DNA from: an uncultured Mollicutes bacterium
GTDB taxonomy: Bacteria; Bacillota_I; Bacilli_A; RF39; UBA660
Length of the DNA: 64,000 nt
Assembly: GCA_947652375.1 (NCBI GenBank)
Contig: CANTCS010000004.1
Span: 542-64,541, forward strand
Direction of reading: 5' to 3'
Position numbers and translations under genes: made by a program. The notes beneath the pieces are model-generated. The model was not told where the DNA came from and made no database searches. It saw only the letters and a list, made by a program, of their open reading frames with translations. Shown one piece after another: positions 5,770 to 58,875 of this stretch. Position 1 is the first letter of the stretch, and every line of letters begins with the position of its first letter.

Positions 5770-5828
5770 AAATGCAACTACCAACTAGTTGTATTTTTAT
5801 ATCCCCCTCCCTATACATAATCGAAGAA
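5770..5828 (+). repeat. Remnant of an adhesin-family gene 3' end plus its downstream sequence (left direct repeat)
   Basis: 59 nt, near-identical to 7773-7832 (AAATGCAACTACCAACTAGTTGTATTTTT..ATCCCCCTCCCTATACATAATCGAAGAA). Degenerate similarity to the adhesin 3' coding end extends about 40 nt further upstream. Confidence 0.85.
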
Positions 5829-6046
5829 AAAATATTTTATAAGTTATTCAATGTTTCATGGTGCATACCCATATCCTGTTGACTTAAAATATATATAATT
5901 CAAACACGATTTAGCACAAAAATTAATACAATATTATTGAACTGTACCAAATGATAATCTATATAATTTGATAAAAATTACACTGGGATACTTTTTCAGA
6001 TAAGTATTCTTATTATGTTAAAACTAATGATATATTAGTGAATCTG

Positions 6047-6079: not shown

Positions 6080-6280
6080 GTGAATTTAATGAATAATAAA
6101 AAGCAAACTGAAAAAAAAATACAAGAAAAAATAAAAAAAGTTGATGGTGCTATGGCTCAAGAGGGAATGCCATTAACTAAAGAAATAAAACAAAAACTTT
6201 ATAATTGTATAACTGGGAAGTCAACAACTGAAATAGAACGAAATAAAGTATTAGAAAAATATAGGAGAATCTATGGATAA
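6080..6280 (+). CDS. VbhA-like Fic antitoxin (small inhibitory partner)
   Basis: 66 aa ORF overlapping the Fic start by 8 nt. AMAQEG resembles the (S/T)xxxE(G/N) inhibitory motif. The true start may be ATG 6089. Confidence 0.7.
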   Translation: MNLMNNKKQTEKKIQEKIKKVDGAMAQEGMPLTKEIKQKLYNCITGKSTTEIERNKVLEKYRRIYG

Positions 6281-6944
6281 TAAATACAAATATACTTTTG
6301 AAAAAACTGCTGATTACTGTTATAAAGATACTGATGTTTTAATAAATAAACTTAATATAACAAATGATGAAGATTTATTTAATGCCGAAAGAGAACTTGT
6401 ATCTTTAAGAACTTATGAACTAAATGAAAATCCATTAAAAGGGAATTTTGATTTTAAGTATTTAAAAGTTATTCATAAATATTTGTTTCAAGATGTTTAT
6501 AGATGGGCAGGAGATATAAGAAATTGTAATATTGCTAAACAAGATTTATTTTGCTTATCAGAACATATAGAATCATTTGGTACTGATGTATTTAATAAAG
6601 TAAAAAAAGAAAAATACTTTGTAGATTATGATAATGAAACAACATTAGATAAATTAGTGGAATTATTTGCAGATATTAATGCTTTGCACCCTTTTCGTGA
6701 GGGCAATGGCAGAAGTCAAAGAGTATTTATAGAATCACTTGCCAAAATAAATGGAATAAACTTAGATCTTACAAATGTATCTAAAATGGATATGATTGTT
6801 GCTAGTCATGAAAGTATTAATGGCGATTATAAAAAATTAAAGGATATGTTTAAAAATAATAGTCATAATTTAAGTGAAGATGAACAATCAGAATATATAA
6901 ATATTTATTGCTCTGATGAACTAAAACACTTAATAAAATATTAG
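6273..6944 (+). CDS. Fic/DOC family protein (AMP-transferase toxin type)
   Basis: Canonical Fic motif HPFREGNGRSQR, matching HxFx(D/E)GNGRxxR. Confidence 0.92.
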   Translation: MDNKYKYTFEKTADYCYKDTDVLINKLNITNDEDLFNAERELVSLRTYELNENPLKGNFDFKYLKVIHKYLFQDVYRWAGDIRNCNIAKQDLFCLSEHIESFGTDVFNKVKKEKYFVDYDNETTLDKLVELFADINALHPFREGNGRSQRVFIESLAKINGINLDLTNVSKMDMIVASHESINGDYKKLKDMFKNNSHNLSEDEQSEYINIYCSDELKHLIKY

Positions 6945-6949
6945 GAGAA

Positions 6950-7330
6950 TTGGAAATGAAATTAAAAGTGCTAGAAGATAATAATACCTTTATTGATGAA
7001 TATTATTTGGGAGAACCCGGAGTCTCTTATTATATCGAAGATGGTGTTGAAAAAATATTATTTGATACAGGATATTCTTCTGTTATATTAGAAGAAAATG
7101 CAAGTAAAATGAACATTGACTTAAACAAGATAAATAAGCTAGTAATGTCCCATGATCATGATGAACATACTGGAGGTTAAAATATTTTTTTTAGAAGAAA
7201 AGAAACATTGAATTAATTGCCCATCCAGATTGCTTTAACTATAAAGAAGATGGAACTGGCTTATATATTGGAAGTCCACTTAGTAAAGAGGAACTAAACA
7301 GATTAGCGAAGTGTAGATATACCTACTCAT
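6950..7330 (+). pseudogene. Decayed metallo-beta-lactamase-fold gene
   Basis: The N-terminal 76 aa carry LFDTGYS and SHDHDEHTGG (HxHxDH) and then hit a stop. A continuation (ELIAHPDCFNYKEDGTGLYIGSPLSKEEL) lies in another frame. The gene is cut off by the adhesin cassette. Confidence 0.75.
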
Positions 7331-7339
7331 GATTATAAG

Positions 7340-7801
7340 TTGTTTGAAGTTCATGAAAGTGATTTTTCAGGAAGTGATTCTTCTAATATAATTATCTATG
7401 CCTTACAAATAACAGGAACAAATGGAGCGGAATTTAAAATTACAGATAGCTCAGGAGTATCTAAGGGAACAATAACAATTGGAAGTGATGGAATTGGTGA
7501 ATTAAAAGGCTTAAAATCTGGAACTTATACAGTAACTCAAACAAAAGCCCCAGCTGGTTATGCATTAATAAGTGGTTCTCAAACAGTAAAAGTAGGAACT
7601 GGAGGAACACCAGTTTCAGGGAAAGATGGGTACTATAACATTACAATGAGAAATTCCATTTTAGCGATATTACCTTTTACAGGAAGTATGGGAACACTAA
7701 TCTTTACAATTATTGGAACTTTACTTATAATAAGTTCAATTGAATTAATAATAAGATATAAGAAAAAAAATAAAGAAAATAGAAATGCAACTACCAACTA
7801 G
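7340..7801 (+). pseudogene. Promoterless 3' cassette of the LPxTG adhesin family (C-terminal domain, sorting signal and anchor only)
   Basis: 7397-7610 matches 19704-19917 at 212 of 214 nt. Encodes YALQITGTNGAEFKITD...LPFTGS plus TM plus a KKK tail. Lacks the signal peptide and N-terminal 380 aa, with no promoter module. Confidence 0.85.
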
Positions 7802-7832
7802 TTGTATTTTTTTTATCCCCCTCCCTATACAT
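7773..7832 (+). repeat. Right direct repeat (adhesin 3' end plus downstream sequence)
   Basis: Near-identical to 5770-5828. Confidence 0.85.
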
Positions 7833-7862
7833 AATCGAAGAATAAAAATTTAATTTTTTTAC

Positions 7863-7893
7863 TTGACAAATAGTTGGGGGGGGGGGGTATTAT
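7863..7893 (+). promoter_or_regulatory. Sigma-A type promoter of adhesin A with a poly-G spacer
   Basis: TTGACA 7863-7868, 19-bp spacer (AATAGTT plus G12), TATTAT 7888-7893. The module is conserved at 18450-18477. Confidence 0.7.
7876..7887 (+). repeat. G12 homopolymer tract
   Basis: Counted directly from the sequence: 12 consecutive G in a very AT-rich context. Confidence 0.95.
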
Positions 7894-7925
7894 TGAAATA
7901 GATAAGATAAGGAGTGAGAAGAAAA

Positions 7926-9515
7926 ATGGATAAAAAAATAAAGTTATTTGGCTTATTATTTATGTTTATTACTATTTTCTTAACTGGCAATATAAATGTA
8001 AAAGCTGTTGATATTACAACTAATACTACAAGTTTATCAACAGATTCATCATATAAACAGGTAACTAATAAAGGGTCATTTAAAATTTATACTAATCAAA
8101 GTAGCAATGATAGAACTTATTTTGCTTTATACAAAATAGTTAATGTTTATTATAATTCTAGTCAAGATGCTTTAAAGTACCAATTTACAACTGAGTTCCA
8201 ATCATATTTAAACAGTAGTTATTGTCCTAATAAATTTAGGAACTTAACTGTCGAAACATATATGACTTTATATAATGGTGGAGCGATTCGAGATACTATT
8301 AAAGGTACAGGGGAAGTTGTAAGTGGAGGGAATCTAACAACAAATGATTATGCTGAATTAATGAGTAGTTATGCAACTTATGTAAGAGAAGAGTCTATTT
8401 CTTCTAATACAACCATTACAAATTATTATACTTATATATATTCTTATGCTTATACAAATAATGTAGAAGTAGGAACATATTTAGCTTTACCTTATGGAAG
8501 ACAAGGCAATGATAGTTCTCCTTCTGTATTTGCAGTCATGGTTGATAGTGTAAGATTAGAAAAAAATGGTTCTACTTGGGAATTAAAAGACGCTAAAATT
8601 TTATCAAAATCGAGTTATTCATATTTAACTCATTCTATAGCTAAATCATCATCAGGTGGATATAGTTATTCACAAGATGTTACCTATGAAACTGAACTTG
8701 AGGGTAAAATTTCATTTAAAGTTCCAACGTCTCCTGCTAATGGAAAATTTTCTACAATAACTATCAAAATAGATAAAGTTCGTGAAACTCAAAGTGGAAT
8801 TATAAGATTTATTACCTCAGGATTGACAGGGTATATTACAATGCAGAGTGGAGGAGAGATTCAATATAATGGCACAAAAGTTGGCATGGCCAAAGTCAAT
8901 GCCACTACCAAGGAGCTTGAAATCGATTTTGATGGTGAATTACTCCCAAATGAAGTAGAATTTGTATATTATGCTGAGCCATTAACTTCAACTAATAGTG
9001 TAATGGGAGCTAATACTAGAAATGCATCAATAACATTTGACGATCCTTATACTTCATTTGATGTAGGCTATAAAACATCGGGTAGTAAAATTGTAACATT
9101 ATATACATATGCCTTACAAATAACAGGAATAAACGGGGCGGAATTTAAAGTTACAGATAGTTCAGGAATCTCTAAGGGAACAGTAACAATTGGAAGTAAT
9201 GGTATCGGTGAACTAAAAGGATTAGCAAGCGGAACCTATACAGTAACTCAAACAAAAGCCCCAGTTGGTTATGCATTGTTAAGTGGATCTCAAACAGTAA
9301 AAGTAGGAACTGGAGGAACACAAGTCTCAGGGAAAACAGGTTATTATAATATTACAATGAGAAATTCCATTTTAGCGATGTTACCATTTACAGGAAGTAA
9401 AGGAACAATTATATTTTCAATTATAGGAAGTTTACTAATTATAGCTTCAATAATATTTTTAATAAGATATAAAAAGAAGAAAAATAAAGTAAATCAAAAT
9501 GCAACTACTAACTAG
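7926..9515 (+). CDS. LPxTG-anchored surface protein, adhesin/pilin-like, paralogue A
   Basis: Signal peptide. C-terminal Cna-B/SpaA-like domain (YALQITG..GTYTVTQTKAPVGYAL). LPFTGS sortase motif, TM segment and KKKK tail. AAGGAG lies 12 nt before ATG 7926 (the ORF track starts at GTG 7914). Confidence 0.85.
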   Translation: MDKKIKLFGLLFMFITIFLTGNINVKAVDITTNTTSLSTDSSYKQVTNKGSFKIYTNQSSNDRTYFALYKIVNVYYNSSQDALKYQFTTEFQSYLNSSYCPNKFRNLTVETYMTLYNGGAIRDTIKGTGEVVSGGNLTTNDYAELMSSYATYVREESISSNTTITNYYTYIYSYAYTNNVEVGTYLALPYGRQGNDSSPSVFAVMVDSVRLEKNGSTWELKDAKILSKSSYSYLTHSIAKSSSGGYSYSQDVTYETELEGKISFKVPTSPANGKFSTITIKIDKVRETQSGIIRFITSGLTGYITMQSGGEIQYNGTKVGMAKVNATTKELEIDFDGELLPNEVEFVYYAEPLTSTNSVMGANTRNASITFDDPYTSFDVGYKTSGSKIVTLYTYALQITGINGAEFKVTDSSGISKGTVTIGSNGIGELKGLASGTYTVTQTKAPVGYALLSGSQTVKVGTGGTQVSGKTGYYNITMRNSILAMLPFTGSKGTIIFSIIGSLLIIASIIFLIRYKKKKNKVNQNATTN

Positions 9516-9632
9516 TTGTATTTTTTATATTTCACTAAAAAAAATAAATAGATATCAAGAATTTAAAAAATCTATAAATCTATCTAAACAATACCTTATC
9601 ACGATCAATTTTTTTATGTTAATAAATTATAA

Positions 9633-9659
9633 TAAAAAAAACTTCCATTTATCTTGGAA
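9633..9659 (-). terminator. Terminator of the ATPase gene (possibly bidirectional)
   Basis: CTTCCA-tttatct-TGGAAG stem flanked by an A8 run on the + strand, which is a T8 run on the - strand. Confidence 0.6.
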
Positions 9660-9735
9660 GATTTCTTATTTATCTATTTACAGTTTCAAACCAGATTAGG
9701 ACATAAATTAACTTAAATATTCTCAAATAAATATT

Positions 9736-11508
9736 CTATAAACGAGGTAAATCATTAGTTGTTTTTTCTAAATTAGTTTGAGGTTGTTCTGTTTCTAATC
9801 TTTTTGTGATAGGTATATTTGGAGGAACAGTCTCTTGTACTATTGAAGTGTTTGGAATTGGAGAGCTAGTGATACTTGGAATTGTTGAGTTTTGCATATT
9901 AGCAAATGACGGAATATTAACAAGTGTATTTTTCAATGGATTTGTTTCTAAAGTAATTCCTTGTTGTAAATTAGGAATAATATTTGTAGAAGGTAATTTA
10001 TCTACCTTTTCCATTATTAAATTTTTATTCTGCTTATTTAAATCAAGCACTTGACTATTATTGCTATTAGTTATAGCACTATCTTGTTTCTTTTTTGAAT
10101 CATCAAAATCAGCTGCTGTAAATATTGGTGGTGTATTAACTATTGAACCATCATTAGTTGTTTTAATTGAATCATCTAGTAAATCATCACTTTCTTCATC
10201 AACTTCATCTTTTGGAATAGTTTCTTTTACAGTTGTTTGAACTTCATTTTCATAATTATCATCATCTTCATTCTCAATTTCAATGTTTTTGTAAACCTCC
10301 TCAAAAGAAGTTTTTCCCTCTAAACACTTTATTAATGCATCTTGTAGCATTGTAATAGTATTACCAGAATAAACCATTTTTGCTAAATCTTTTTTCTCTA
10401 CATTCTCATTACTTAAGGCACTTCTTATATTATCGTCTAATTCCAAAACTTCATGAATTGCAATACGTCCACGATAACCATGTCGACAACGTTCACATCC
10501 TTTAGGATTAGCATCCCAAATATTTAAAACATCCTTATTCATATATTTTTTAAAAACTTTTCTTTCGTATTGTGTTGTTTTTCTTTGATAGCGACAAGTA
10601 GGACACAACATTTTAGCTAATCTTTGCGATATTATTCCTGATAAAGCCGTTGATAATAAATATCTTTCAACATCCATATCTAAGAGACGTTCAACTGTTG
10701 CTAAGGCATTGTTAGTATGGATAGTAGATAATACTAAGTGTCCTGTTATAGATGCACGAACGGCAATTTGAGCAGTTTCTGAGTCACGAATTTCTCCAAT
10801 TAAAATAATATTTGGATCTTGTCTTAGAATAGATCTTAAAGCAGCAGCAAAAGTCATTCCAATTTCTGTGTTAACTTGAACTTGATTTATACCCTCAATA
10901 TTCATTTCTATAGGGTCCTCAACTGTAATAATATTTGTCTCGGGTTTATTTAATCCTTGTAAAATAGAATAAGTAGTAGTAGATTTACCAGAACCAGTCG
11001 CTCCAGTAGTTAAAATAATCCCATTAGGGATTCCCATCATTCTTTTTATTTTCTCTAAATTTTTTGGATGAAATCCTAAAGAATCAATACCTTGTAAACT
11101 TCTAGTATAATCTAAAATACGAATAACAATTTTTTCTCCCTCATTTAAAGGCAATGCAGAAACACGCATATCTAAATAAGTACCACCATAATCTCCTTTA
11201 ATTGCTCCATCTTGGGGAAGACGTGATTCCGTAATATTCATATTCGAAAGTAATTTTATTCTTGTAACTAAATTTTTTTCATAAGCTTTTGGAACAAAAG
11301 TATAATCTTGTAAATCACCATCTATTCTAAATCTTACCATCATACCATCTTCTCTTGGGTCAAAATGAATATCGGAAGAATTGTGTTTTGATGCTGCTAC
11401 AATTATATAGTCTACTACTTGAGTAACAGGAGTCTTAGTAAAATCAAAAGACACCATGAAACTTTCGGTTCCTTGTTGAACACGTTTTACATCAAACTGG
11501 ACCATCAT
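9736..11508 (-). CDS. GspE/PilB/ComGA-family type IV pilus or competence assembly ATPase with a long low-complexity C-terminal tail
   Basis: Walker A GATGSGKST, Walker B ILIGEIRD, His box GHLVLSTIHT. Tetracysteine CPTC...CERC. The last ~180 aa are acidic and S/N/P/T-rich low complexity. Confidence 0.9.
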   Translation of the reverse strand: MMVQFDVKRVQQGTESFMVSFDFTKTPVTQVVDYIIVAASKHNSSDIHFDPREDGMMVRFRIDGDLQDYTFVPKAYEKNLVTRIKLLSNMNITESRLPQDGAIKGDYGGTYLDMRVSALPLNEGEKIVIRILDYTRSLQGIDSLGFHPKNLEKIKRMMGIPNGIILTTGATGSGKSTTTYSILQGLNKPETNIITVEDPIEMNIEGINQVQVNTEIGMTFAAALRSILRQDPNIILIGEIRDSETAQIAVRASITGHLVLSTIHTNNALATVERLLDMDVERYLLSTALSGIISQRLAKMLCPTCRYQRKTTQYERKVFKKYMNKDVLNIWDANPKGCERCRHGYRGRIAIHEVLELDDNIRSALSNENVEKKDLAKMVYSGNTITMLQDALIKCLEGKTSFEEVYKNIEIENEDDDNYENEVQTTVKETIPKDEVDEESDDLLDDSIKTTNDGSIVNTPPIFTAADFDDSKKKQDSAITNSNNSQVLDLNKQNKNLIMEKVDKLPSTNIIPNLQQGITLETNPLKNTLVNIPSFANMQNSTIPSITSSPIPNTSIVQETVPPNIPITKRLETEQPQTNLEKTTNDLPRL

Positions 11509-11593
11509 TTCAACCCCTTTGTCTACTTTTTATGGTATTTTATTTTATTTTATTATATAATAAATACATTACAATAGCAAGAAAAAGGGAAGA

Positions 11594-12307
11594 ATGAAAA
11601 TGAAAAAAATTAATAGTAAAGGCTTTGTCCTTGCCGAGACTTTAGTTGTAACAGTTTTTTTAATGGTAATATTTGGAATGATTTATAGTAACTTTTATCC
11701 ATTAATGGGCGAATATGAAAAAAGAGAAAATTATAACGATGTTGATAGTATTTATTCAATATTTTGGTTAAAAAGATTTATCGAAGATAGTGATTATCAG
11801 CCAAATAATGCAAAAAAAATGAATCTTTCCAAAAATCATTTTATGCGCTTTGATTGTCATGATATAATTGAAGCTCAAAAACAAGAAACTTGCAAAAACT
11901 TATTAAGTTCTCTTCAAGTAGAAGGTTGTAATAGTCAAGGTAGTAATTGTAATATTTTTATAACTCCTTATAAAATTGATGAATTTAAGGATTTAGTATC
12001 AAAAAAATTTAAAAGATATAAAGAAGATTGTAATTATTCTGATAATTATTGCAAAAATAAATATATAGAAAACAATTATGCTTCAGATAATACTGATGGT
12101 AATTTATCAGAAGAAAAAAGAAAAGAAAAATGGGAAGTTCGTTCTGAAAAAAGTGTTTTTAATAGTGGGATGGAGGATTATATATTTTCTCTTCCAAATT
12201 ACAAAAACACTACTAATAAACCAAAATATAGAGTAATCGCTAGTTTCCAACATAGAAAAGATAATAATAATTTTTACTCCTATGCAACAATTGAGGTGAA
12301 TAAATAA
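11594..12307 (+). CDS. Prepilin-type N-terminal domain protein (pseudopilin-like), Cys-rich
   Basis: N-terminus KGFVLAETLVVTVFL matches the G|F-x-x-x-E class III signal followed by a hydrophobic helix. The body contains 7 Cys. Confidence 0.7.
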   Translation: MKMKKINSKGFVLAETLVVTVFLMVIFGMIYSNFYPLMGEYEKRENYNDVDSIYSIFWLKRFIEDSDYQPNNAKKMNLSKNHFMRFDCHDIIEAQKQETCKNLLSSLQVEGCNSQGSNCNIFITPYKIDEFKDLVSKKFKRYKEDCNYSDNYCKNKYIENNYASDNTDGNLSEEKRKEKWEVRSEKSVFNSGMEDYIFSLPNYKNTTNKPKYRVIASFQHRKDNNNFYSYATIEVNK

Positions 12308-12939
12308 TGAAAAAATTAAATAATCGAGGAATAACAACCATAGAAGTAATAGTTTGTTTTGTATTAGTAGTTATTATTACAGTTACAATGTATTCAACAA
12401 TCTCAGCGTTTAATCAAAAACGCTCATTAGAAAGCTACAAAGCAAGAATTTATACATATAAAAATCTTCTTACCAAAGAAATACAAGATGATTTTATCAA
12501 AAAAGGATTATTAAGCGCTAACTATAAACGAGAAACAAATGATGCAAAAGTTACCTATACCGTAGATTGTCAATTAAAAGATAATACATCAAGGAAATTA
12601 ATTATTGAACAACAACTTACATATTCTAAAGGAGTCCATGAGGGAGGCTCTCCTAATGTTGATGATAGTTTTATGATTAAATATGGACCTCCAAATGATT
12701 TAATTGAATATCCACTCCCTAATATAGGGGAAGAAGATATAGAACAATCAAATGGTACAAAGACTAAAGCCATGGATTTAAGCATTAATAATATCATAAT
12801 CAATAAAGATCAAGATAATGTCTTATCAATATATATTGGATTTTATCATCCAGAATTAGGTACAAGGTATGGAATAGATATAGTTGCCCCAATTAATTAT
12901 TCACCTGGAGGAGGAGATAGTACAGGGTTTGATTTATAA
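12307..12939 (+). CDS. Prepilin-type N-terminal domain protein (pseudopilin-like)
   Basis: N-terminus RGITTIEVIVCFVLVVII (G|ITTIE). Its start overlaps the stop of the upstream pseudopilin gene. Confidence 0.7.
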   Translation: MKKLNNRGITTIEVIVCFVLVVIITVTMYSTISAFNQKRSLESYKARIYTYKNLLTKEIQDDFIKKGLLSANYKRETNDAKVTYTVDCQLKDNTSRKLIIEQQLTYSKGVHEGGSPNVDDSFMIKYGPPNDLIEYPLPNIGEEDIEQSNGTKTKAMDLSINNIIINKDQDNVLSIYIGFYHPELGTRYGIDIVAPINYSPGGGDSTGFDL

Positions 12940-13815
12940 TAATAGTAAAAAAATTCCAAAAGCTAGCATTGTTCCTAAAATTCTTCCAAACAAAAAATAT
13001 CTATATTTTATCTCTGTATCCGCAATAATACTTTTAACCTGCATATGAATAGAAAGTCCTCCAAAAGCAATAAATAACAAAATATAAAAAGCACGTAAAG
13101 TAATATTATTAGTTAAAGTAGTTGAGAAAACACCTTTAGTTAAATCAAAAAAACCATTTAATAAAATAAATCCATTAGTACCCAAAACCATGTATTTAGT
13201 AATAATAGTTGCAACTAAATAAAAAAATAGTGATGTTCCATATATTAATAATAGTGTATTAAAACTATTACTAACAGCCTTACTTAATACACTTGAAAAA
13301 TTACTTGGAATTTTATAATCATTTATAATTTTGTTTTTACTCTTATGAGAAAATAAATAAATTATCAAATTACTAAATATAATTGCTAAAAGCATCTTAA
13401 AACATAAACTTTTATCATTCAAGACCATATAAACAGATCCAAGAATAAATAAAGGATTAGGAAAATGACTAAACATAATAATTTTATTAGCCTCATCCAA
13501 AGAAATTAACCCTTTAAGAAGTAATTCTTTTGTATATTTAGCTCCACTAGGAAAACCACTAATGGCACTGATTAATAAAACATATAAACTACTAGTATTA
13601 ACCTTTAAATACTTTTGAATCAATTGAATTAATCCATATTCAATTAACAAACTTGAAAAAATAAAAAATAATAAACTAACTGGAAATAATTTAGTTAAAA
13701 ATAAAATTGAATAATCGATTATTGCATTAACAATTGTATTTGAATTAAATAAATATAAAATTAATAATGTAATTAATGTGACAAGTATTAATATACTTTT
13801 ATAAGTTTTTTTCAT
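12934..13815 (-). CDS. ylbJ: Polytopic membrane protein, YlbJ-like (sporulation integral membrane protein, nucleoside-recognition domain family)
   Basis: Multi-TM 293 aa. Divergent from a YlbL-like gene, as in the Bacillus ylbJ/ylbL neighbourhood. Confidence 0.55.
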   Translation of the reverse strand: MKKTYKSILILVTLITLLILYLFNSNTIVNAIIDYSILFLTKLFPVSLLFFIFSSLLIEYGLIQLIQKYLKVNTSSLYVLLISAISGFPSGAKYTKELLLKGLISLDEANKIIMFSHFPNPLFILGSVYMVLNDKSLCFKMLLAIIFSNLIIYLFSHKSKNKIINDYKIPSNFSSVLSKAVSNSFNTLLLIYGTSLFFYLVATIITKYMVLGTNGFILLNGFFDLTKGVFSTTLTNNITLRAFYILLFIAFGGLSIHMQVKSIIADTEIKYRYFLFGRILGTMLAFGIFLLLL

Positions 13816-13856
13816 AATTCTCCTTTTCTTTGTTATAATTATTATAAGGTGATAAA

Positions 13857-14873
13857 ATGTTTAAGAAGTTATTTAATTATATTAAGAATTTAATCAAAGA
13901 AGAATATAAATTTATTATTTTTCTAATATTAAGTTATATTGTATTTTCTTTTCCTTTAAATTATTACATAACAGTAGGAGGTGGAACTAGTGATGTTGCA
14001 AGTAGAATAGAAGTAAATGACAACTATAAAAGTAAAGGTTCGTTTAATATTAGCTATGTTACTCAATTAAATGGCACGATCCTAACTTATGGACTAAGCT
14101 ATCTAATACCAACTTGGGAAAGAGAAGATGCCAATCTTTATAAATATGATGAAAGTGAGAGTTTAGAAGATATTAGTTTTCGAGGCGATATCGATCTAAA
14201 AACAGCCAATGCAACAGCAACATATTGGGCCTATACCTTAGCAAATAAAGAAATAAAAGAGAAAAGTTCTAAATTATATGTAATTTCAACTTTTAAAGAA
14301 TATGAGACAACACTAAAAGTTCAAGATGAAATTTTGAGTATTGATAATTTTCACTATGAAACTGTTGAAGAATACAAAAAATATATGCAAACTAAAAAAG
14401 TTAATGATATTTTAAATATTAAAGTTTTAAGAAATAATAAAGAACAAACTTTATCTGCCAAACTCCATGAAGAAAATAATAAATTAATTTTAGGTGTTGC
14501 ACTACAATATGTTAAAGAATATTCCGTAAATCCAAAAGTTAAAATTAATTTTAAGAAAAGTGAATCAGGTCCCTCAGGTGGTTTAATTACAACTCTTGAA
14601 ATATATAATCAATTAACTAAAAAAGATTTGACAAAAGGCCTTAAAATTGCTGGAACAGGAACAATTGAAATTGATGGAACAATCGGTCAAATCGGGGGAA
14701 TAGAACATAAAATTCTTGGTGCCGAAAAAGACCATGCTGATATTTTCTTAGCCCCATCTGGAGAAAATTATCAAGATGCCTTAAACTATAAGAAAAAAAA
14801 TAAATTAAAAATCAAAATAATTGAAGTAAAGACAATAAAAGATTCGATAGAAAAATTAGAGGCCTTAAATTGA
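13857..14873 (+). CDS. YlbL/SepM-type PDZ plus Lon-like (S16) serine protease
   Basis: N-terminal TM, a PDZ-like middle region and a C-terminal Lon protease domain (SGPSGGL...KIAGTGTI...IGGIEHKILGA). Confidence 0.8.
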   Translation: MFKKLFNYIKNLIKEEYKFIIFLILSYIVFSFPLNYYITVGGGTSDVASRIEVNDNYKSKGSFNISYVTQLNGTILTYGLSYLIPTWEREDANLYKYDESESLEDISFRGDIDLKTANATATYWAYTLANKEIKEKSSKLYVISTFKEYETTLKVQDEILSIDNFHYETVEEYKKYMQTKKVNDILNIKVLRNNKEQTLSAKLHEENNKLILGVALQYVKEYSVNPKVKINFKKSESGPSGGLITTLEIYNQLTKKDLTKGLKIAGTGTIEIDGTIGQIGGIEHKILGAEKDHADIFLAPSGENYQDALNYKKKNKLKIKIIEVKTIKDSIEKLEALN

Positions 14874-15418
14874 ATATTGGAATAGATTTAGATGATACAA
14901 TTTGTGCAACTACAGAAGTTATTCAAAAATATTTAGAAAAATATTCAATTAAAGAAAATTTATCTCCCTTTGAAATAATTGATGATGAAATGATAAAATT
15001 AGAATTTTTTAATCTTTACTTAGATAAAATATACCAAAAAGTTAAACCAAAAAAAGATGTGAGTAGTGTCTTAAGAAGAATAAAAAATAGAGGCAATAAG
15101 CTATATATAATTACATCAAGAAGAAATGATTATGCATCAAATGTTAATAATGTTTCAGAAATTATTGAAAATTGGTTAAATAAACACAAAATAAAAGTTG
15201 ATAAAATAATAGTACTTTCTCATGAGCAAACAAAAATTGATATATGTCGCGAAAATAAAATAGATTTAATGATTGATGATGATCCTTATAATTATAAAAA
15301 AATAAATGCCGCAGGTATCAAATGCTTATTATTTGATGAAGACAACAAATTTGATTTAAAAGAAAATTCCGCCTCAAGTTGGTTAGAAATTGAAAGATAT
15401 ATTGAAAGGAATAGGTAG
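14870..15418 (+). CDS. HAD-superfamily 5'(3')-nucleotidase-like hydrolase
   Basis: DLDDT motif I at the N-terminus, ITSR motif II and IDDD motif IV. Confidence 0.7.
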   Translation: MNIGIDLDDTICATTEVIQKYLEKYSIKENLSPFEIIDDEMIKLEFFNLYLDKIYQKVKPKKDVSSVLRRIKNRGNKLYIITSRRNDYASNVNNVSEIIENWLNKHKIKVDKIIVLSHEQTKIDICRENKIDLMIDDDPYNYKKINAAGIKCLLFDEDNKFDLKENSASSWLEIERYIERNR

Positions 15419-15419
15419 T

Positions 15420-16244
15420 ATGAAAAAAATTATCTCATTATTATTAATATTAATTACATTATTTACTATAGAAGTTAATGCTGCAAATTATCAAATAAAA
15501 GAATTAATTCCTCTAGACACTTCTACAACAATAGTAACTGATAATTTTAGTTATAAAGATTTCTATTATAATGATAATAAATTAGAAGCAGAAGCTTTAA
15601 AAAATAATTTTATAATCTTTAAAGGAATAAAAAACATCTCTAATAAAGATCTTCCTGTTTCAATAAGCATCGGTTTATTTGATCAGAACAAACTAAATAT
15701 TGGCACAATAAATTATTGTTCGACAAGTGATAAAACAAGTATTGTAGCAGGGACTATATTAAAAAAAGATGAAGAAAAAGAATATGTTATAGAAGTAAAT
15801 GAAAGATTTCTTGCAGATCAAAAAACAGTACAAGATATTAAATACATTGCTATATTAAATGATAATATTCATTGCCGCAGTACAGGCTCTTTAGAATTTG
15901 TTGGAAAAAAAGTAGAGGACATAAAATTATCAAAAAAATCTCTTTTAGATGATAATCACACTCAATTAGTAATTCAATTATTTACTGTTTTAACGATAAT
16001 TTTAATAATTATTTTCTTATATAGATTTTTATTTACCAATTCATTTAATAATTTTAATGGAGAAGATTATCGTAGAGCTTTTGAAAAAAGAAATAAGCAA
16101 TTAGCTAAAGAAAGAGAAAAACTTCCTAAAGACGAGCCTAAAAAAATACTTTCTGGAAAAAGTGATTTTATTAAAGAACAGGAAGTAGAAGAATCTAAAA
16201 AAGTAAATCAAGAATCAACTGATCTACATAATATGTATAAATAA
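15420..16244 (+). CDS. Secreted/membrane-anchored hypothetical protein
   Basis: Signal peptide MKKIISLLLILITLFTIEVNA, a C-terminal TM and a charged tail. The ORF track start 15390 is probably too far upstream. Confidence 0.6.
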   Translation: MKKIISLLLILITLFTIEVNAANYQIKELIPLDTSTTIVTDNFSYKDFYYNDNKLEAEALKNNFIIFKGIKNISNKDLPVSISIGLFDQNKLNIGTINYCSTSDKTSIVAGTILKKDEEKEYVIEVNERFLADQKTVQDIKYIAILNDNIHCRSTGSLEFVGKKVEDIKLSKKSLLDDNHTQLVIQLFTVLTIILIIIFLYRFLFTNSFNNFNGEDYRRAFEKRNKQLAKEREKLPKDEPKKILSGKSDFIKEQEVEESKKVNQESTDLHNMYK

Positions 16245-16272
16245 TATAAGCTTTAAGTTTATATTTTTTTAT

Positions 16273-16304
16273 TTTCCCACAATTTCCCACAATTTTTTTA
16301 TAAT
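16273..16304 (+). promoter_or_regulatory. Tandem direct repeat TTTCCCACAA x2 abutting a TATAAT box (candidate OmpR-family binding site and promoter)
   Basis: Exact 10-bp tandem repeat at 16273-16292. TATAAT at 16299-16304, upstream of the RR-HK operon. Confidence 0.5.
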
Positions 16305-16471
16305 TCTAACACATTTATAGTTTAAGATTAAATTATCGAAAGGAGGAATGCTCATAAATTTAAAATAAAAATTAAAATAAAAAATATAACATATTAATAA
16401 ACATACAAAAGGAGGTATGTCATAATAGGAATAAAGTAAATATAGTGTTATACTATTAATAGGTGGTAATA

Positions 16472-17137
16472 ATGTATAAAGTGTGTTTAGTTGAAGATGA
16501 AGAAGCTCTCTTAAATATTGTAAAACTTTATTTAGAAAGAGCAGGCTATGAAACTATTTGTTTTACAAAAGGTCAAGAAGCAATAAATTATATTGGAAAT
16601 AGAGTAGATTTGTGGATTTTAGATATCATGTTAGGAGATGATAAAAATGGCTACGATGTAATCAATGCTATTAGAGAATATGATGAAAATGTTCCCGTAA
16701 TATTTACATCAGCTAGAGACCAAGAACTAGATAAAATTTTTGGTCTTGAACTAGGTAGTGATGATTACATGACAAAACCTTATTCCAGTAAAGAATTAGT
16801 ATTAAGAGTAAATAATATTATCAAAAGAGTCTATAAAGATTTAGACTCATCAAATAATATAATAAACTATGAAAACTATATAATTAACCTTGAGAAAAGA
16901 ACAGTTGAATTAAATAAAAAAGAACTAAAATTAACAACTTTAGAATTTGATTTACTAATATTATTTTTAAAAAATAAAGGTAAATGTTTTTCTAGAGAAG
17001 AAATATTAAATACAGTTTGGGGACAGGATTATTTTGGCAATGATAGAGTCGTTGATGATTTAATAAGAAGGATAAGAAAAAAATTATCAAAAATAAAAAT
17101 TGAAGCTGTCTATGGTTATGGATACAGAGTTTTATGA
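16472..17137 (+). CDS. OmpR/PhoB-family response regulator
   Basis: Receiver domain (VEDEE, DLWILDIMLGD, K residue) plus a winged-helix trans_reg_C domain (LTTLEFDLL...GYGYRV). Confidence 0.93.
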   Translation: MYKVCLVEDEEALLNIVKLYLERAGYETICFTKGQEAINYIGNRVDLWILDIMLGDDKNGYDVINAIREYDENVPVIFTSARDQELDKIFGLELGSDDYMTKPYSSKELVLRVNNIIKRVYKDLDSSNNIINYENYIINLEKRTVELNKKELKLTTLEFDLLILFLKNKGKCFSREEILNTVWGQDYFGNDRVVDDLIRRIRKKLSKIKIEAVYGYGYRVL

Positions 17138-18417
17138 ATTTTGGAAAAAATAATTTAAGTAAACAATTACTTTTTGTAGTCGGAATAGCTTTTATCTTAT
17201 TGTTCATTTCCTTAGGCGCTATTCTCCCAAAATTGTTAATTCCTCCAGCTGAAGCTAATATTTATAATTATCTAAATGAACCTTTAAAAATATATGATAT
17301 AAATAATGATAATAAACTTCTTGATACTGAAATAGCTTATATTTACATTACAGACAATTTAATAACAACTAGTGAAAATATTAAAGATGTTATAAAATAT
17401 AACAACCTTGGAAAAATACTTAATAAAATGACCAAATCTTATGGTAAATTTATTTATAATCATAAGACATACTACTACTATACTTTAAAATCAAAAAGAG
17501 TTACAAAAATTGCTATTTCAGATGATAGTTATATAAATAGAACTAAAACCTCTATACTAACTGCCATTTTTCCACTTGTACTTGGAACATTTTTACTAAT
17601 AGGATTGATGTTAGTCATTTGGTCCTCAATCGTTGTAAGAAAAATCGAAAAACTAAAAAATAAAATTGATAATATTGATAATCCAGATTACAATCATAAA
17701 GTAGACTTTACTACAGATGATGAAATAAGATCGCTTGCTCTAGCTATTGATGATATGCGTATTTCTTTAATAAGTCAAGAAGAATATCGTAAGCAAATGT
17801 ATCAAAATATTTCTCATGATTTTAAAACACCTCTTACCGTTATAAAATCATATATTGAAGCAGTAGAAGATGGCGTCGAAGATGAAAAAAATGCTTTCAA
17901 AACCATCAAAGAGCAAACGAACAAATTAGAACAAAAAGTACACTCACTTCTTTATTTAAATAAGCTTGATTATCTCAAAAATCAAAATAATATATCTTCA
18001 GAATTAATAGATATGCATAAATTAATAACTCAAGAAGTAGAAAAATTTAAATTTTTACAAAAAAATATAAAATTTGAAATTTCTATTGACCCAAAATCTA
18101 AATTTTATGGATCATTTGAAAATTGGGAAACAATTCTTGATAATATATTAAGTAATTTTATGAGATATGCTCACGCGACTGTTAAAATAACAGTAAAACA
18201 GAATAGAATAATTCTCTATAATGATGGAAATCAAATTGACACTGATTTACTTGAAGGAATTTTTACTCCGTTCCGAAAAGGAATCAAAGGTGAATTTGGA
18301 CTTGGACTTTCTATCGTTAAAAAAACTCTCAATTTAATGGATTACGATATAAAAATAAAAAACGAAAAGAAAGGTGTTTCATTTATAATTACTAGTAAAA
18401 AAAGGATTCGAAAATAA
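17134..18417 (+). CDS. Sensor histidine kinase
   Basis: Two TM segments, a HAMP-like linker, H-box SHDFKTPLT, N box and G boxes (GLGLSIV). ATGA overlap with the RR gene. Confidence 0.93.
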   Translation: MNFGKNNLSKQLLFVVGIAFILLFISLGAILPKLLIPPAEANIYNYLNEPLKIYDINNDNKLLDTEIAYIYITDNLITTSENIKDVIKYNNLGKILNKMTKSYGKFIYNHKTYYYYTLKSKRVTKIAISDDSYINRTKTSILTAIFPLVLGTFLLIGLMLVIWSSIVVRKIEKLKNKIDNIDNPDYNHKVDFTTDDEIRSLALAIDDMRISLISQEEYRKQMYQNISHDFKTPLTVIKSYIEAVEDGVEDEKNAFKTIKEQTNKLEQKVHSLLYLNKLDYLKNQNNISSELIDMHKLITQEVEKFKFLQKNIKFEISIDPKSKFYGSFENWETILDNILSNFMRYAHATVKITVKQNRIILYNDGNQIDTDLLEGIFTPFRKGIKGEFGLGLSIVKKTLNLMDYDIKIKNEKKGVSFIITSKKRIRK

Positions 18418-18449
18418 TGAATTCTTTTTTTGTTCCTCTTAATTATCGC

Positions 18450-18477
18450 TTGACAAATACTTGGGGGGGGGTATTAT
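18450..18477 (+). promoter_or_regulatory. Sigma-A type promoter of adhesin B with a poly-G spacer
   Basis: TTGACA 18450-18455, 16-bp spacer (AATACTT plus G9), TATTAT 18472-18477. The leader is identical to that of adhesin A. Confidence 0.7.
18463..18471 (+). repeat. G9 homopolymer tract
   Basis: Counted directly from the sequence. Confidence 0.95.
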
Positions 18478-18509
18478 TGAAATAGATAAGATAAGGAGTG
18501 ATAAGAAAA

Positions 18510-20111
18510 ATGGAGAGAAAATTAAAAATAGTTAGTTGTTTAGTTTTTTTCTTGTTTTTATTAATTAATTGTCCACTAAATGTAGAAGCAATAAATATTA
18601 CAACAAATAATGAAACTTATTCAGGTGATTCTTCATATAAAAAAGTAACAAATCATGGAAATTTTAAAATTTATACTAATACAAATAGTCATGATACAAC
18701 AAATTTTAGACTATATAAAATAGTAAATATATATTATAATTCTGTTAGAGATGAAATTAAGTATGGCTTTACAACTAATTTCCAAACATTCTTAAATAGT
18801 AGTGATTGTCCAAGTACTTTTAGAGCAATGACTATTGAAATATTTATGTCTTTAAATAAAGGAACCGCTATACGAGATCAATTAGATGGAAATAATTATG
18901 TAGTAAGTGGAGGAAATTTAACATCAAATGATTTTGCAAGACTAATGAGTGCATATGCAGGTTATGTAAGAGAGCACACAATTAGTACTGATGGATATCT
19001 TTCAATGTATTCTCTTTCGACATCTGGTCGACCATATAAAATGTCAGATTATGTTGAAGCGGGGACACATTTAGCTTTGCCAGATGATAGCATAGGAGCT
19101 GATTATGGAGTATCAGTCTTTGGAGTTATGGTAGATAGTGTAAGACTAGAAAAGAATGGCTCTACTTGGGAATTGAAAGATGCTGAAATTTTAGCTAAAA
19201 CAACTACTACATCTTTATCACATCAAATAGCTGCTAACTATCAAGGACCATTTAATTTGTCAGCAGACGTGGGCTATGGAGGTAGTCCAGAAGGTAAAAT
19301 TTTATTTGCAATCCCAACATATCCAGCCAATAGTTTAGTCCCTCCAATGATAACGGTAACAATTGATAAAGTTCGAAATGAAAGTGGTTGGCTTACTTTT
19401 GTTACTTCTGGATTTTCAATATCTGATATGTCATCAACTGGAGGAACAATTAAATATAATAATCAAACTGTTGGAACAGCTGTTAGAAATAGTAGTACAG
19501 GACAAGTTAAAGTAAAGTTTACAAGTATAAGTCTTATTCCTAAAACAATAGAATTTAAATATCATGCTGAGTCTCTAAACTCAATTAATAGTGTAATGGG
19601 AGCTAACAAAAGAAATGCGAAATTAGAGTTTAGTGATCCTTATACATCTTCTGAAACAGTAGCAATAAATACAGCAGAGAGTAGAGATGCAATATTTTAT
19701 ACATATGCCTTACAAATAACAGGAACAAATGGAGCGGTATTTAAAATTACAGATAGCTCAGGAGTATCTAAGGGAACAATAACAATTGGAAGTGATGGAA
19801 TTGGTGAATTAAAAGGCTTAAAATCTGGAACTTATACAGTAACTCAAACAAAAGCCCCAGCTGGTTATGCATTAATAAGTGATTCTCAAACAGTAAAAGT
19901 AGGAACTGGAGGAACACAAGTATCAGGAAAAACAGGATATTATAATATTACAATGAGAAATAGTATTCTTTTAGTCCTTCCATTTACTGGAAGTAAAGGA
20001 ACAATTATATTTTCAATTATAGGAAGTTTACTAATTATAGTTTCAATAATATTTTTAATAAAATATAAAAAGAAGAAAAATAAAGTAAATCAAAATACAA
20101 CTACTAACTAG
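18510..20111 (+). CDS. LPxTG-anchored surface protein, adhesin/pilin-like, paralogue B
   Basis: Same architecture as 7926-9515. The 3' ~130 nt are near-identical to paralogue A. LPFTGS motif. ATG 18510 follows AAGGAG (the ORF track starts at GTG 18498). Confidence 0.85.
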   Translation: MERKLKIVSCLVFFLFLLINCPLNVEAINITTNNETYSGDSSYKKVTNHGNFKIYTNTNSHDTTNFRLYKIVNIYYNSVRDEIKYGFTTNFQTFLNSSDCPSTFRAMTIEIFMSLNKGTAIRDQLDGNNYVVSGGNLTSNDFARLMSAYAGYVREHTISTDGYLSMYSLSTSGRPYKMSDYVEAGTHLALPDDSIGADYGVSVFGVMVDSVRLEKNGSTWELKDAEILAKTTTTSLSHQIAANYQGPFNLSADVGYGGSPEGKILFAIPTYPANSLVPPMITVTIDKVRNESGWLTFVTSGFSISDMSSTGGTIKYNNQTVGTAVRNSSTGQVKVKFTSISLIPKTIEFKYHAESLNSINSVMGANKRNAKLEFSDPYTSSETVAINTAESRDAIFYTYALQITGTNGAVFKITDSSGVSKGTITIGSDGIGELKGLKSGTYTVTQTKAPAGYALISDSQTVKVGTGGTQVSGKTGYYNITMRNSILLVLPFTGSKGTIIFSIIGSLLIIVSIIFLIKYKKKKNKVNQNTTTN

Positions 20112-20163
20112 TTGTATTTTGATTTTATTATTATCTAACTAAAATATTATTAAAATTTTTGCT

Positions 20164-20198
20164 AAAAAAATTATAGAAAATTTCTATAATTTTTTTTA
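20164..20198 (+). terminator. Bidirectional-looking terminator after adhesin B
   Basis: A-run, ATTATAGA stem, TCTATAAT stem, then T-run. Confidence 0.6.
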
Positions 20199-20361
20199 TT
20201 TTATGCTATAATTAAATAAAAGAATATAAAACTATTAAAAATAAAGAATAGAGAGGGAAGTATAATATGAAAATTTATTTATAATAATCTTTGAAAAAAA
20301 GAGAACGAAACAACTAGTATTTTAACATTTTAAAACAATTATAAAAAGGAAGTTGATAATA

Positions 20362-21225
20362 ATGAGTAGAATAAAAAATAAGACTACAAAAAATATAATC
20401 TCGATATTAATGCTAACAATTGGAACAATAATAGCTTCATTAGCATTAGAGTGTTTTTTAATTCCGAATACTATTTTAGATGGGGGTATTACTGGTATAT
20501 CTATAATAATTTCTAAATTATCAAAAATACCTTTAGCATTTTTGGTATTAGTTTTAAATATTCCTTTCATATTTATAGGTTTTAAAAATCTAGGAAAAAG
20601 TTTTCTTTTAAGAACTTTATATTCTATGATTTGTTTTTCTTTTTTTCTATCATTTTTTGGTAACTTTAAACCGTTTACAGAAGAAATTCTATTAGCAACA
20701 GTTTTCGGTGGAGCTTTATTAGGTTCAGGAGTTGGTATAGTTATTCATTTTGGAGGATGCGTTGATGGTACTGAAAGTGTAGCAATTGTAATAAGTAAAA
20801 GAACAAATTTAAGCGTTGGTCAAATAGTTTTGATGTTCAATTTAATAATTTATACAACAGCAGGTTTTATATTTGGCTTTGATAGAGCAATGTATTCACT
20901 ATTGACCTATCTAATAACATTCAAAGTAATAGATTTTGTATCAGAAGGGTTAGAGCAAGCTAAAGCTGCCTTAATAATAACAGCTAAAGGAACTTCACTA
21001 TCTAAAGAAATTTATGCAAAATTAGGAAGAACAACAACAACAATTAAAGGAAAAGGATTAATAAGCGGAGAAAAAGAAGTTTTATATTGTGTTTTAACTA
21101 GAATTGAAATATATGAATTAAAAAACTTGGTGGAAGAAATGGATGAAAGTGCTTTTATAACTATATTAGATGTTTCAGATATTATTGGAACTCATATAAA
21201 AAGTAATAACAAAAGAAAAATTTAG
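20362..21225 (+). CDS. YitT-family membrane protein (DUF2179 C-terminal domain)
   Basis: Five to six TM helices plus a C-terminal soluble domain typical of YitT. ATG 20362 lies 9 nt after AAAGGAAG. Confidence 0.8.
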   Translation: MSRIKNKTTKNIISILMLTIGTIIASLALECFLIPNTILDGGITGISIIISKLSKIPLAFLVLVLNIPFIFIGFKNLGKSFLLRTLYSMICFSFFLSFFGNFKPFTEEILLATVFGGALLGSGVGIVIHFGGCVDGTESVAIVISKRTNLSVGQIVLMFNLIIYTTAGFIFGFDRAMYSLLTYLITFKVIDFVSEGLEQAKAALIITAKGTSLSKEIYAKLGRTTTTIKGKGLISGEKEVLYCVLTRIEIYELKNLVEEMDESAFITILDVSDIIGTHIKSNNKRKI

Positions 21226-21419: not shown

Positions 21420-21467
21420 AAAAAAGTGTTGACATTTTAAAATGTTATTAATATAATGTTAATAACA
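21420..21467 (+). promoter_or_regulatory. Promoter (TTGACA-17-TATAAT) overlapped by a 23-bp near-palindrome: candidate NAD-regulon operator, copy 1
   Basis: TTGACA 21429-21434, TATAAT 21452-21457, palindrome GTTATTAATATAATGTTAATAAC 21444-21466. 45 of 48 nt identical to 29046-29093. Confidence 0.75.
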
Positions 21468-21538
21468 AGCGGGAAAACTTGTTAAAAAATTTAACTATAG
21501 TTATTAACAAAATATTAAAAAGAAGGGTGATGTTGAAA

Positions 21539-29045: not shown

Positions 29046-29093
29046 AAAAAAGTGTTGACATTTTATTATGTTATTAATATAATATTAATAACA
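29046..29093 (+). promoter_or_regulatory. Promoter (TTGACA-17-TATAAT) overlapped by a perfect 23-bp palindrome: candidate NAD-regulon operator, copy 2
   Basis: TTGACA 29055-29060, TATAAT 29078-29083, palindrome GTTATTAATATAATATTAATAAC 29070-29092. Confidence 0.75.
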
Positions 29094-54087: not shown

Positions 54088-54096
54088 GTGTATTTA

Positions 54097-57380: not shown

Positions 57381-57492
57381 TTTAAATTCAGGGGGTTAAA
57401 AAGAGAGAATTTAATCAGATGAAAAATATATTGACAAAAAAACATTTAAAAGAGTATGATTAAATAAAGTAGATTAGAAAGAGGTTGTTTTA

Positions 57493-58875
57493 ATGAAAAA
57501 GTTTTCTTTAAAAATAGGGTATTTTATCATTATATTTCTTGTTCTATGCATTAGTATTGGTTATTCTGCTTTGAACGAAAGATTATTAATAGATAATATC
57601 ACTGCAGAAGTACGAGTTGAAAAAGATATAAGAATTACTAATGTAGGAATTAATTCTAGCGAAAATGAAGCAATCTCTAAATATGAAAACTATAATATTA
57701 ATAATATTACTAGCTCTGTTTCTCTTCCCACAGTTAACTCAAATATTACTTATCGAATTGATATTACTAATCTTGGAAATACAGAAATGGCTATTAAAAC
57801 AATTACTGGTCTTCCAGAAAACTTAACATATGAATTATTAAATTATAATTTAAAAGATAAAATATGTGCAAATAATAAATGTAATTTAGGTATAAAAAAA
57901 GAGATTCTTTTAAAAATAAAATATAAAAACTTTAATCCCAGTCAAACTAATTATACCTTTAAATTAGATTTTGAATTTAGCCAAATTTATTCAATCAAAT
58001 ATTTAAATTTAGAAAATAATAATTTATACCCTAAAGAAATCTTAGATAAAGAGACATTAAAAATCAATTTTCAAAATTCTCTTCCAAATAGTTTAAGTAT
58101 AAAAATGAATAATCTTTCTTTACAAGAAAATATTGATTATACTTTTACTAACAATTGTCTAACTATTCCAAATATAAATGGAAATATAGAAATTATTCTA
58201 AATTATCAATCTTTCTTAAAAGAAATAAATAAAGGCGAATATTTTAAAGAAGAACTTTATTTTGACAAAATAAAAAATGTTTATTTTGTCGACTATATTG
58301 AAAAGGATAATTTTTTAAAAAGTTATGATGTTACAGAAGAACAAAATGGACGAATTATAGCTTGGATAGTTGCCAATGAAAGTGATTTTGATTTATATAT
58401 TGGTTCCAATGAAGAAATAAAAGCCAAAAGTTTAAAAGGTCTATTTCAAGATATGTTAATAGAAAATATTGATTTTAATAACTTTTCCACTGAAGAAACA
58501 ATCAATTTTCAAGATATGTTTAATAATTGTCAAAATTTAAAAAAACTAAATCTTAATAATTTTACTACAGAAAAAGCAAAGAATTTAGAAAGAATGTTTG
58601 CCAATTGCGAGAATTTATTAAGTTTAAATTTTTCTAATTCTATCTTCAATCAAGATAATAATTTAAATGAAATGTTTTACAATTGCACTACATTAAAAGA
58701 TTTAAAACTTGGCACTATTTCTCCAAATGTTATTCTCTGTAGCAATATATTTAAAAATGTAAATATCAGTGCAGAAATTACTGTAAAAAATGAAGAAACA
58801 AAGAATTGGATTTTAAATCTACCTGTAAATGATCGCCCTGAAGTATGGTCTGATGTAAATATAAGCATTGTCTAA
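57493..58875 (+). CDS. Surface protein with C-terminal BspA/DUF285-type leucine-rich repeats
   Basis: N-terminal signal anchor. Repeats of the form F(x)NCxNLKxLNLxNFxT...NLxxMF. Confidence 0.75.
   Translation: MKKFSLKIGYFIIIFLVLCISIGYSALNERLLIDNITAEVRVEKDIRITNVGINSSENEAISKYENYNINNITSSVSLPTVNSNITYRIDITNLGNTEMAIKTITGLPENLTYELLNYNLKDKICANNKCNLGIKKEILLKIKYKNFNPSQTNYTFKLDFEFSQIYSIKYLNLENNNLYPKEILDKETLKINFQNSLPNSLSIKMNNLSLQENIDYTFTNNCLTIPNINGNIEIILNYQSFLKEINKGEYFKEELYFDKIKNVYFVDYIEKDNFLKSYDVTEEQNGRIIAWIVANESDFDLYIGSNEEIKAKSLKGLFQDMLIENIDFNNFSTEETINFQDMFNNCQNLKKLNLNNFTTEKAKNLERMFANCENLLSLNFSNSIFNQDNNLNEMFYNCTTLKDLKLGTISPNVILCSNIFKNVNISAEITVKNEETKNWILNLPVNDRPEVWSDVNISIV

Follow-up and report, generated by a model that had tools for sequence, protein, structure and literature searches.

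[quoted passage not shown]

Genes and promoters at the locus

The stretch of DNA analysed here (the window, 64 kb), from an AT-rich Bacilli bacterium of gut type, carries two paralogous genes for LPXTG-anchored surface proteins, A and B. A homopolymer of at least about 8 nt lies between the −35 and −10 hexamers of both promoters, G12 in copy A, where the hexamers stand 19 nt apart, and G9 in copy B, where the spacer is 16 nt (Table 1). The position of promoter A, its 19-nt spacer, the AAGGAG and the ATG at 7926 had all been claimed in an earlier sequence-only reading of this DNA and proved exact on re-reading; the homologous tract that it placed at 18463–18471 was likewise confirmed, as the G9 of the paralogous promoter. 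Tract A is separated from the ATG by 38 nt, transcription of copy A is predicted to start near position 7900, and neither gene A nor gene B contains a run of six or more G's or C's. An extended −10 (TGn) reading of promoter A was rejected, the bases preceding TATTAT being GGG, as was reiterative transcription from a start site in the G run, for which a conserved promoter upstream of the tract is absent.

Table 1. Coordinates of the features at promoters A and B (positions in the window).
Feature	Position	Strand	Basis or remark
3′ fragment of a third paralog (SpaA domain, LPFTG)	7340–7801	+	directly upstream of promoter A
Terminator hairpin and T-run of the upstream fragment, then C-box TCCCCCTCCCT (7816–7826)	7781–7826	+	fold prediction
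−35 hexamer TTGACA, copy A	7863–7868	+	direct read; kept in 11/11 homologous promoters
Non-repeat part of spacer, AATAGTT, copy A	7869–7875	+	direct read; copy B counterpart AATACTT
G12 homopolymer, proposed slippage-prone, length-variable part of spacer, copy A	7876–7887	+	direct read
−10 hexamer TATTAT, copy A	7888–7893	+	kept as TATTAT/TACTAT among homologous promoters
Conserved leader, copy A	7894–7925	+	one base differs from copy B
Shine-Dalgarno AAGGAG, copy A leader	7909–7914	+	ATG at 7926
Gene A: signal peptide, putative three-domain shaft-pilin-like protein, LPFTG anchor (529 aa)	7926–9515	+	Pfam SpaA, Gram_pos_anchor
Copy B promoter: TTGACA (18450–18455), AATACTT, G9 (18463–18471), TATTAT (18472–18477)	18450–18477	+	
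Copy B leader and gene (P0002; ATG 18510; 533 aa)	18478–20111	+	~60% amino acid identity to A

The window has a G+C content of 25.0%, with G making up 15% and C 10% of the + strand. Its only runs of six or more G's are the G12, the G9 and an intragenic G6 at 56802, and C runs of that length are absent from the whole 64 kb, while base composition predicts ~9e-6 G12 runs and ~2.5e-3 G9 runs per 64 kb. Both runs of seven or more G's occupy the equivalent site in the promoters of two paralogous surface-protein genes, and this equivalent placement is not chance. The asserted rarity, by which G runs longer than six in this AT-rich window are limited to the G12 and its homolog at 18463–18471, was borne out by the count. 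The G6, which encodes Gly-Gly, was discarded as a third tract.

When copies A and B are aligned (7763–9531 versus 18350–20160), the upstream regions are unrelated and homology begins at 7862, one base ahead of the −35 box; from TTGACA to the ATG the two match near-perfectly, the G count aside. A 30-nt segment comprising the −10 box and leader is the same in A and B, absent elsewhere in the window and unmatched in shuffled sequence (0 of 100 shuffles). Identity is 92% over the promoter and leader, 45–75% over the signal-peptide and central coding regions, and 83–97% over the last ~400 nt, which hold the C-terminal domain, the anchor and the terminator. A variable middle between conserved ends points to gene conversion, or to an exchange of cassettes, among the paralogs. 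A two-component system (16463–18417) stops 33 nt upstream of promoter B.

Both genes are intact, with 529 and 533 codons. Protein A shows the layout of a backbone pilin, namely a signal peptide, a multi-domain Ig-like (CnaB/SpaA) fold and a C-terminal LPXTG sorting signal, and gene B (18510–20111) encodes a signal peptide, a SpaA/CnaB-type domain and an LPFTG cell-wall anchor. Searched against the PDB, the family profile matches backbone pilins. An AlphaFold2 model of A (mean pLDDT 84, pTM 0.73) had its best Foldseek matches in the S. pyogenes T6 pilin (4p0d, E = 1.7e-21) and C. perfringens CppA (5xcc), with further matches to S. sanguinis PilA/PilB, B. cereus BcpA and corynebacterial SpaD/SpaA. 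On this modelled fold, the product is a putative three-domain shaft-pilin-like LPXTG surface protein, and its signal peptide, SpaA domain, LPFTG anchor and pilin fold are those of a surface-exposed product. The sequence-only reading spoke of an adhesin and of an LPxTG surface protein; secretion and LPXTG anchoring (SpaA, LPFTG) are borne out, but the predicted fold is that of backbone (shaft) pilins, and adhesin is at most a putative role.

The pilin motif YPKN is absent from proteins A and B, the family consensus being TYPAN, and an E-box-like YTVTQTKAPVGY carries Q in place of the canonical E-box glutamate. A non-canonical lysine serves in some pilins, those of S. pyogenes among them, so the missing YPKN does not exclude polymerisation. 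The sortase motif TLxTC occurs in no ORF of the 64-kb window, and no class C sortase was found adjacent to the genes. In a relative (L046, 115–5725; Logan SRR14167427), a sortase gene lies 2.5 kb downstream of the homolog, as part of a cluster that also holds a GT2 glycosyltransferase and a further SpaA-domain protein. The family is small: 18 homologs were found among 5.8 billion clustered proteins, and the only organism name attached to them, or to close LepA homologs, is "MAG: Bacilli bacterium".

The third-paralog fragment upstream of promoter A appears to be a remnant of a tandem array, and the region as a whole looks like the recombination-scarred remains of a tandem pilin array. Ahead of this fragment come part of a metallo-beta-lactamase gene and a Fic/DOC gene that has a small ORF upstream of it (6950–7180, 6080–6944). 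A ~60-nt repeat (5772–5830 and 7784–7845) comprises the last codons of a pilin paralog (NATTN-stop), a terminator hairpin, the C-box TCCCCCTCCCT and TATACATAATCGAAGAA; the copy at 5772 is orphaned, as no gene precedes it, and the identical C-box within that copy (5802–5812) is followed by no G tract. A similar C-box follows gene 1 of a tandem array in the contigs L001 and L004 of a related organism, and C-rich 11-mers are absent elsewhere on this strand of the window. The C-box resembles an anti-Shine-Dalgarno sequence.

Conservation of the hexamers and the spacer norm

A promoter comparison set was built by recovering the upstream DNA of homologs from further samples and organisms; it comprises 11 homologous sequences of seven gene types, from several species or samples, with the promoters of two other full-length paralogs (P0003 and P0004) lying outside it. 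Exact-protein look-ups returned no record for 4 of 12 proteins (P0001, P0003, P0004 and the histidine kinase beside copy B). Among the GTDB representative genomes, an exact-pattern scan for the 22-nt leader gave no match, and a protein-profile scan gave 165 pattern matches but no relative; because neither scan gave a relative, the lineage is absent from the searchable representative genomes. A gapped −10/leader pattern matched five sequences in the JGI metagenomes, which are chance matches because all five are unrelated coding sequence in contigs of 33–41% GC. No match to G8 plus the leader was found in an IMG/VR viral scan.

TTGACA is invariant in all 11 homologous promoters, and the sequence of the spacer is free. 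The −10 box reads TATTAT in eight of them (five gene types) and TACTAT in the remaining three (two more distant gene types), in every case 16–20 nt past TTGACA. The leader element AAGATAAGGAG is retained in L001, L004 and L046, and a conserved GATAAGATAAGG repeat lies within the leader. In two samples (L012 and L014, 1–1500), different sequence has taken the place of the DNA ahead of the P0013 pilin promoter; the breakpoint is ~20 nt before the −35 box, and a divergently oriented gene with a Pfam UPF0236 domain now stands upstream. The P0013 promoter is still retained. There is thus strong comparative support for TTGACA…TATTAT behaving as a genuine conserved promoter.

The homologous promoters that are free of a tract retain both boxes and lack the G's. 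Their spacer is 18 nt long in four of the five such gene types (P0005, P0006, P0007 and P0013) and 17 nt in the fifth (P0014), and four unrelated TTGACA promoters in the window, each preceding an ORF, have spacers of 17–18 nt. Since the family and the unrelated window promoters share this spacing, the organism appears to use canonical housekeeping-sigma promoters with a norm of 17–18 nt. The G run is the sole length-variable part of the promoter and shifts A (19 nt) and B (16 nt) off that norm. The optimum of G10 (17 bp) proposed by the sequence-only reading applies to one tract-free gene type, the family-typical value being 18 nt; copy A stands a single G off the typical spacing, and both G11 and G10 would be expected ON.

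Two TTGACA-17-TATAAT promoters in the window (21429–21457 and 29055–29083) have a 50-nt block in common, in which a palindrome TGTTATTAATATAATATTAATAACA lies over the −10 box. They precede ORFs at 21479 (with the NAPRTase gene next, at 22660) and 29225, and the palindrome is probably a shared repressor operator, perhaps of an NAD-salvage regulon. At 57431–58875, a "Mycoplasma" DUF285 domain protein has a TTGACA-18-TATGAT promoter of its own; it may be another surface protein, and it hints at an affinity with Mollicutes-related Bacilli.

Tract length and its candidate role

Homologous tracts have lengths of G9, G12, G13, G14 and at least 16 G's. In the related organism, known from Logan assemblies, the tract promoter (TTGACA, AAAAGC, G run, TATTAT) is that of gene 2 of a three-paralog tandem array. 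One contig (L001, 1–4758; Logan SRR17182828) holds such an array with all three paralogs intact, in which one paralog has a G13/G14 promoter and its neighbour a fixed, purine-rich spacer of 18 nt. Since tracts belong to individual paralogs and this neighbour has a fixed 18-nt spacer, we infer that the family mixes constitutive and switchable members.

The homolog P0008 (526 aa, ~40% identical to A) has identical coding sequence in six samples, and six Logan contigs (L004–L009) carry its tract. The public runs with these loci are SRR17182828, SRR17464406, SRR17464450, SRR17464400, SRR17464447 and SRR17182785. Two of these, L004 and L005, come from different samples and span the tract, reading G14 (SRR17182828) and G13 (SRR17464406), respectively; over 3233 nt they show no mismatch and one gap column, which is located in the tract. 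The other four, which carry the identical P0008 gene, terminate inside the tract, at 4, 12, 13 and 16 G's. The contig breaks and the one-G difference are what a hypervariable tract would give in short-read assemblies, but they are suggestive rather than decisive, because Illumina sequencing handles G tracts poorly, its reads tending to continue as G's (the "G's end" effect; PMC9187656).

The window's own locus is present in a second assembly (L045; ENA ERZ14650943), which differs from the window by 9 substitutions in 2702 nt, encodes a protein with 528 of 529 residues identical, and also has G12. Because it is reproduced in this independent assembly, G12 is a real, reproducible modal length and not a random error. 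The tract had been put forward as a slippage site, with a comparison of related isolates and metagenome bins as a check. Variation is indeed seen among the homologous tracts, down to the G13 versus G14 of the related organism, whereas the window's own tract is G12 in both of its assemblies.

We consider it probable that the tract is a slipped-strand promoter-spacer switch of a pilin-like LPXTG gene, of the type known from porA, tp0126 and vlp. The G run would serve as the variable spacer of a housekeeping-sigma (sigma-70/SigA-type) promoter, to which slipped-strand mispairing at replication would add, or from which it would remove, G's; each gain or loss would alter the distance and rotational phasing between TTGACA and TATTAT, and hence recognition by RNA polymerase. 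We infer that switching within a clone is reversible and that expression depends on tract length. Copy A would be expected to reach full transcription at G10–G11 (17–18 nt) and to be weak or OFF at the observed G12, one step from ON, while copy B at G9 would be reduced or intermediate, one to two steps under the optimum, and the related G13–G14 alleles (19–20 nt) would be OFF. With a separate tract for each paralog, the population would come to display differing combinations of pilin variants, as expected of a contingency locus. Because mutL is present in the window, slippage would not go wholly unrepaired. The mutL gene (54088–55893) lies directly after uvrC (region 52327–55893), mutS is not adjacent, and the completeness of mismatch repair bears on the mutability of the tract.

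A G tract in short-read data invites the suspicion that it, or at least its length, is an artefact of assembly or sequencing, a caveat already attached to the sequence-only reading. Illumina chemistry does miscall G tracts (PMC9187656), and four of the six Logan contigs break at the homologous tract. Tract A, however, is internal, with unique flanks on both sides; G12 is recovered again in an assembly that differs at 9 other sites, which largely answers the caveat, although Illumina is still poor at G tracts (PMC9187656); and the homologous promoters of a paralog and of another organism carry G tracts at this site too. We give an artefact hardly any credence. More weight attaches to the view that the tract is hypermutable but neutral or degenerative, its promoters having drifted off the working spacer range and its paralogs having been silenced or left weakly constitutive. 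The observed alleles have spacers of 16, 19, 19, 20 and at least 22 nt, none of them within 17–18 nt, with G13 to G16 several steps away from the ON length, and the neighbourhood is scarred, with a truncated paralog, an orphan 3′ module and gene fragments. Yet genes A and B are intact, the promoter and leader form the best-conserved stretch of the 5′ region, and a G tract is found at the equivalent site of both paralogs and of a homolog from a second organism, with protein identity of only ~40%, which speaks for its maintenance. Decay is, in our judgement, unlikely.

The G run could also act other than through spacer length in a housekeeping promoter. It could be a binding or spacing element of a regulator-dependent promoter, as at Bordetella fim or meningococcal opc, the response regulator by copy B (16463–17137) being one candidate: the two-component system ends just ahead of promoter B, and the repeat in the leader is conserved. 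Against this stand the perfect TTGACA at canonical distance in all homologs and the tract-free homologs, which keep the boxes but not the G's, as well as copy A, which has no adjacent regulator. A regulator is unnecessary because the −35 box is perfect, and tract length would have its effect even in the presence of one, so that we regard this account as improbable. Less probable still, and in our view very unlikely, is an action through structure, whether a hairpin with the C-box (~50 nt upstream) that insulates the promoter or terminates read-through, or a G-quadruplex. A 13-bp stem between C-box and G tract is predicted in copy A and in L004 (z-scores −2.8 and −3.1), and the C-box accompanies both tracts of at least 12 G's. 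However, copy B has its G9 and no C-box, the identical C-box at 5802 is tract-less and belongs to a repeated 3′-end module, and the strong terminator ahead of the C-box means that little RNA would include it. No Rfam family matches the region; a search of 7000–20500 at a permissive threshold returned only two sub-threshold matches to eukaryotic families, which were judged noise. As a partner of the G tract the C-box is weakened by the tract-less copy and by its absence from copy B, and its link to the switch is doubtful.

Relation to known switches and meaning for the lineage

Simple-sequence contingency loci are textbook material in Neisseria, Haemophilus, Campylobacter, Treponema and the mycoplasmas; to our knowledge, they have rarely been documented in walled Firmicutes or Bacilli and hardly ever in uncultured commensals. 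In M. hyorhinis, the vlp genes reportedly carry a poly-A tract in each promoter spacer, as Yogev et al. in 1991 and Citti and Wise in 1995 are said to have described. The likeness to vlp extends to a multigene family of surface proteins with highly conserved promoters and 5′ regions and divergent coding regions, to a separate homopolymer promoter for each paralog (here seen with a tract in some), to combinatorial ON/OFF states, and to AT-rich hosts in or near the Bacilli/Mollicutes radiation. The vlp tracts, however, are poly-A and control lipoproteins of a wall-less cell, whereas those described here are poly-G and precede genes for LPXTG pilin-like proteins of a walled cell.

It is a tentative possibility that the two tracts belong to a vlp-like, genome-wide system of surface variation, in which phase and antigenic variation of sortase-anchored pili would be combined. 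At least four full-length pilin paralogs, together with fragments, would make up its repertoire; conserved promoter/leader and 3′ cassettes would flank variable middles, some paralogs would be switched independently by poly-G, and all would be open to inter-paralog recombination. We know of no description of such combinatorial variation of sortase-anchored pili in walled Firmicutes.

The M. hyorhinis vlp system is among those listed in PMC11868660. In N. meningitidis porA and T. pallidum tp0126, the spacer between the −35 and −10 hexamers holds a poly-G tract whose length governs expression; what counts is the nearness of the spacer to 17 nt (PMC7864442). The promoters described here resemble these in that a G tract fills the spacer of a surface-protein gene; they differ in host and product, since porA and tp0126 encode outer-membrane proteins of diderms and have ~7–11 G's, whereas the present tracts, known from sequence alone, run from G9 to at least G14 in AT-rich Bacilli and precede a sortase-anchored pilin-like product.

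Sortase-dependent pili under the control of simple repeats are known from other Gram-positive bacteria, by different routes. In Bifidobacterium breve UCC2003, also a gut commensal, replication slippage in G tracts controls sortase-dependent pilus genes, and G11 and G12 coexist in cultures (PMC9187656). That tract is part of the first coding sequence and works through frameshifting, whereas the one described here belongs to a promoter spacer and would affect transcription; an intragenic switch of the Bifidobacterium type was not found at copy A, whose tract ends 38 nt upstream of the ATG. Promoter G tracts in the B. breve genome are mentioned in that paper only in passing (PMC9187656). The Pil1 pilus of Streptococcus gallolyticus is turned ON and OFF stochastically, driven by a simple sequence repeat that precedes the pilin gene (PMC3894217), but through attenuation by a leader peptide with repeats and a terminator, not through promoter spacing. 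In S. pyogenes M28, the intergenic homopolymer between Spy1336/R28 and Spy1337 is polymorphic in natural populations (PMC7098570); it differs in being poly-T, located ahead of R28 between divergent genes, with a regulator gene involved, and is not described as a spacer tract (PMC7098570). Our literature search turned up no description of a Firmicute in which the −35/−10 spacer of a sortase-anchored pilin gene contains a poly-G tract.

The mechanism itself is already known, and the present case is a candidate contingency locus, clean and open to testing, from a commensal lineage that is uncultured. It supplies a search rule for further loci, by which low-GC genomes are screened for conserved −35 and −10 boxes that enclose a run of at least eight G's. 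If the promoter-spacer switch is real, a poorly known AT-rich lineage of Bacilli that is widespread in metagenomes would tune the display of pilin-like proteins by promoter poly-G, with a bearing on colonisation, on evasion of IgA and phage, and on a population heterogeneity that the consensus sequences of MAGs would hide.
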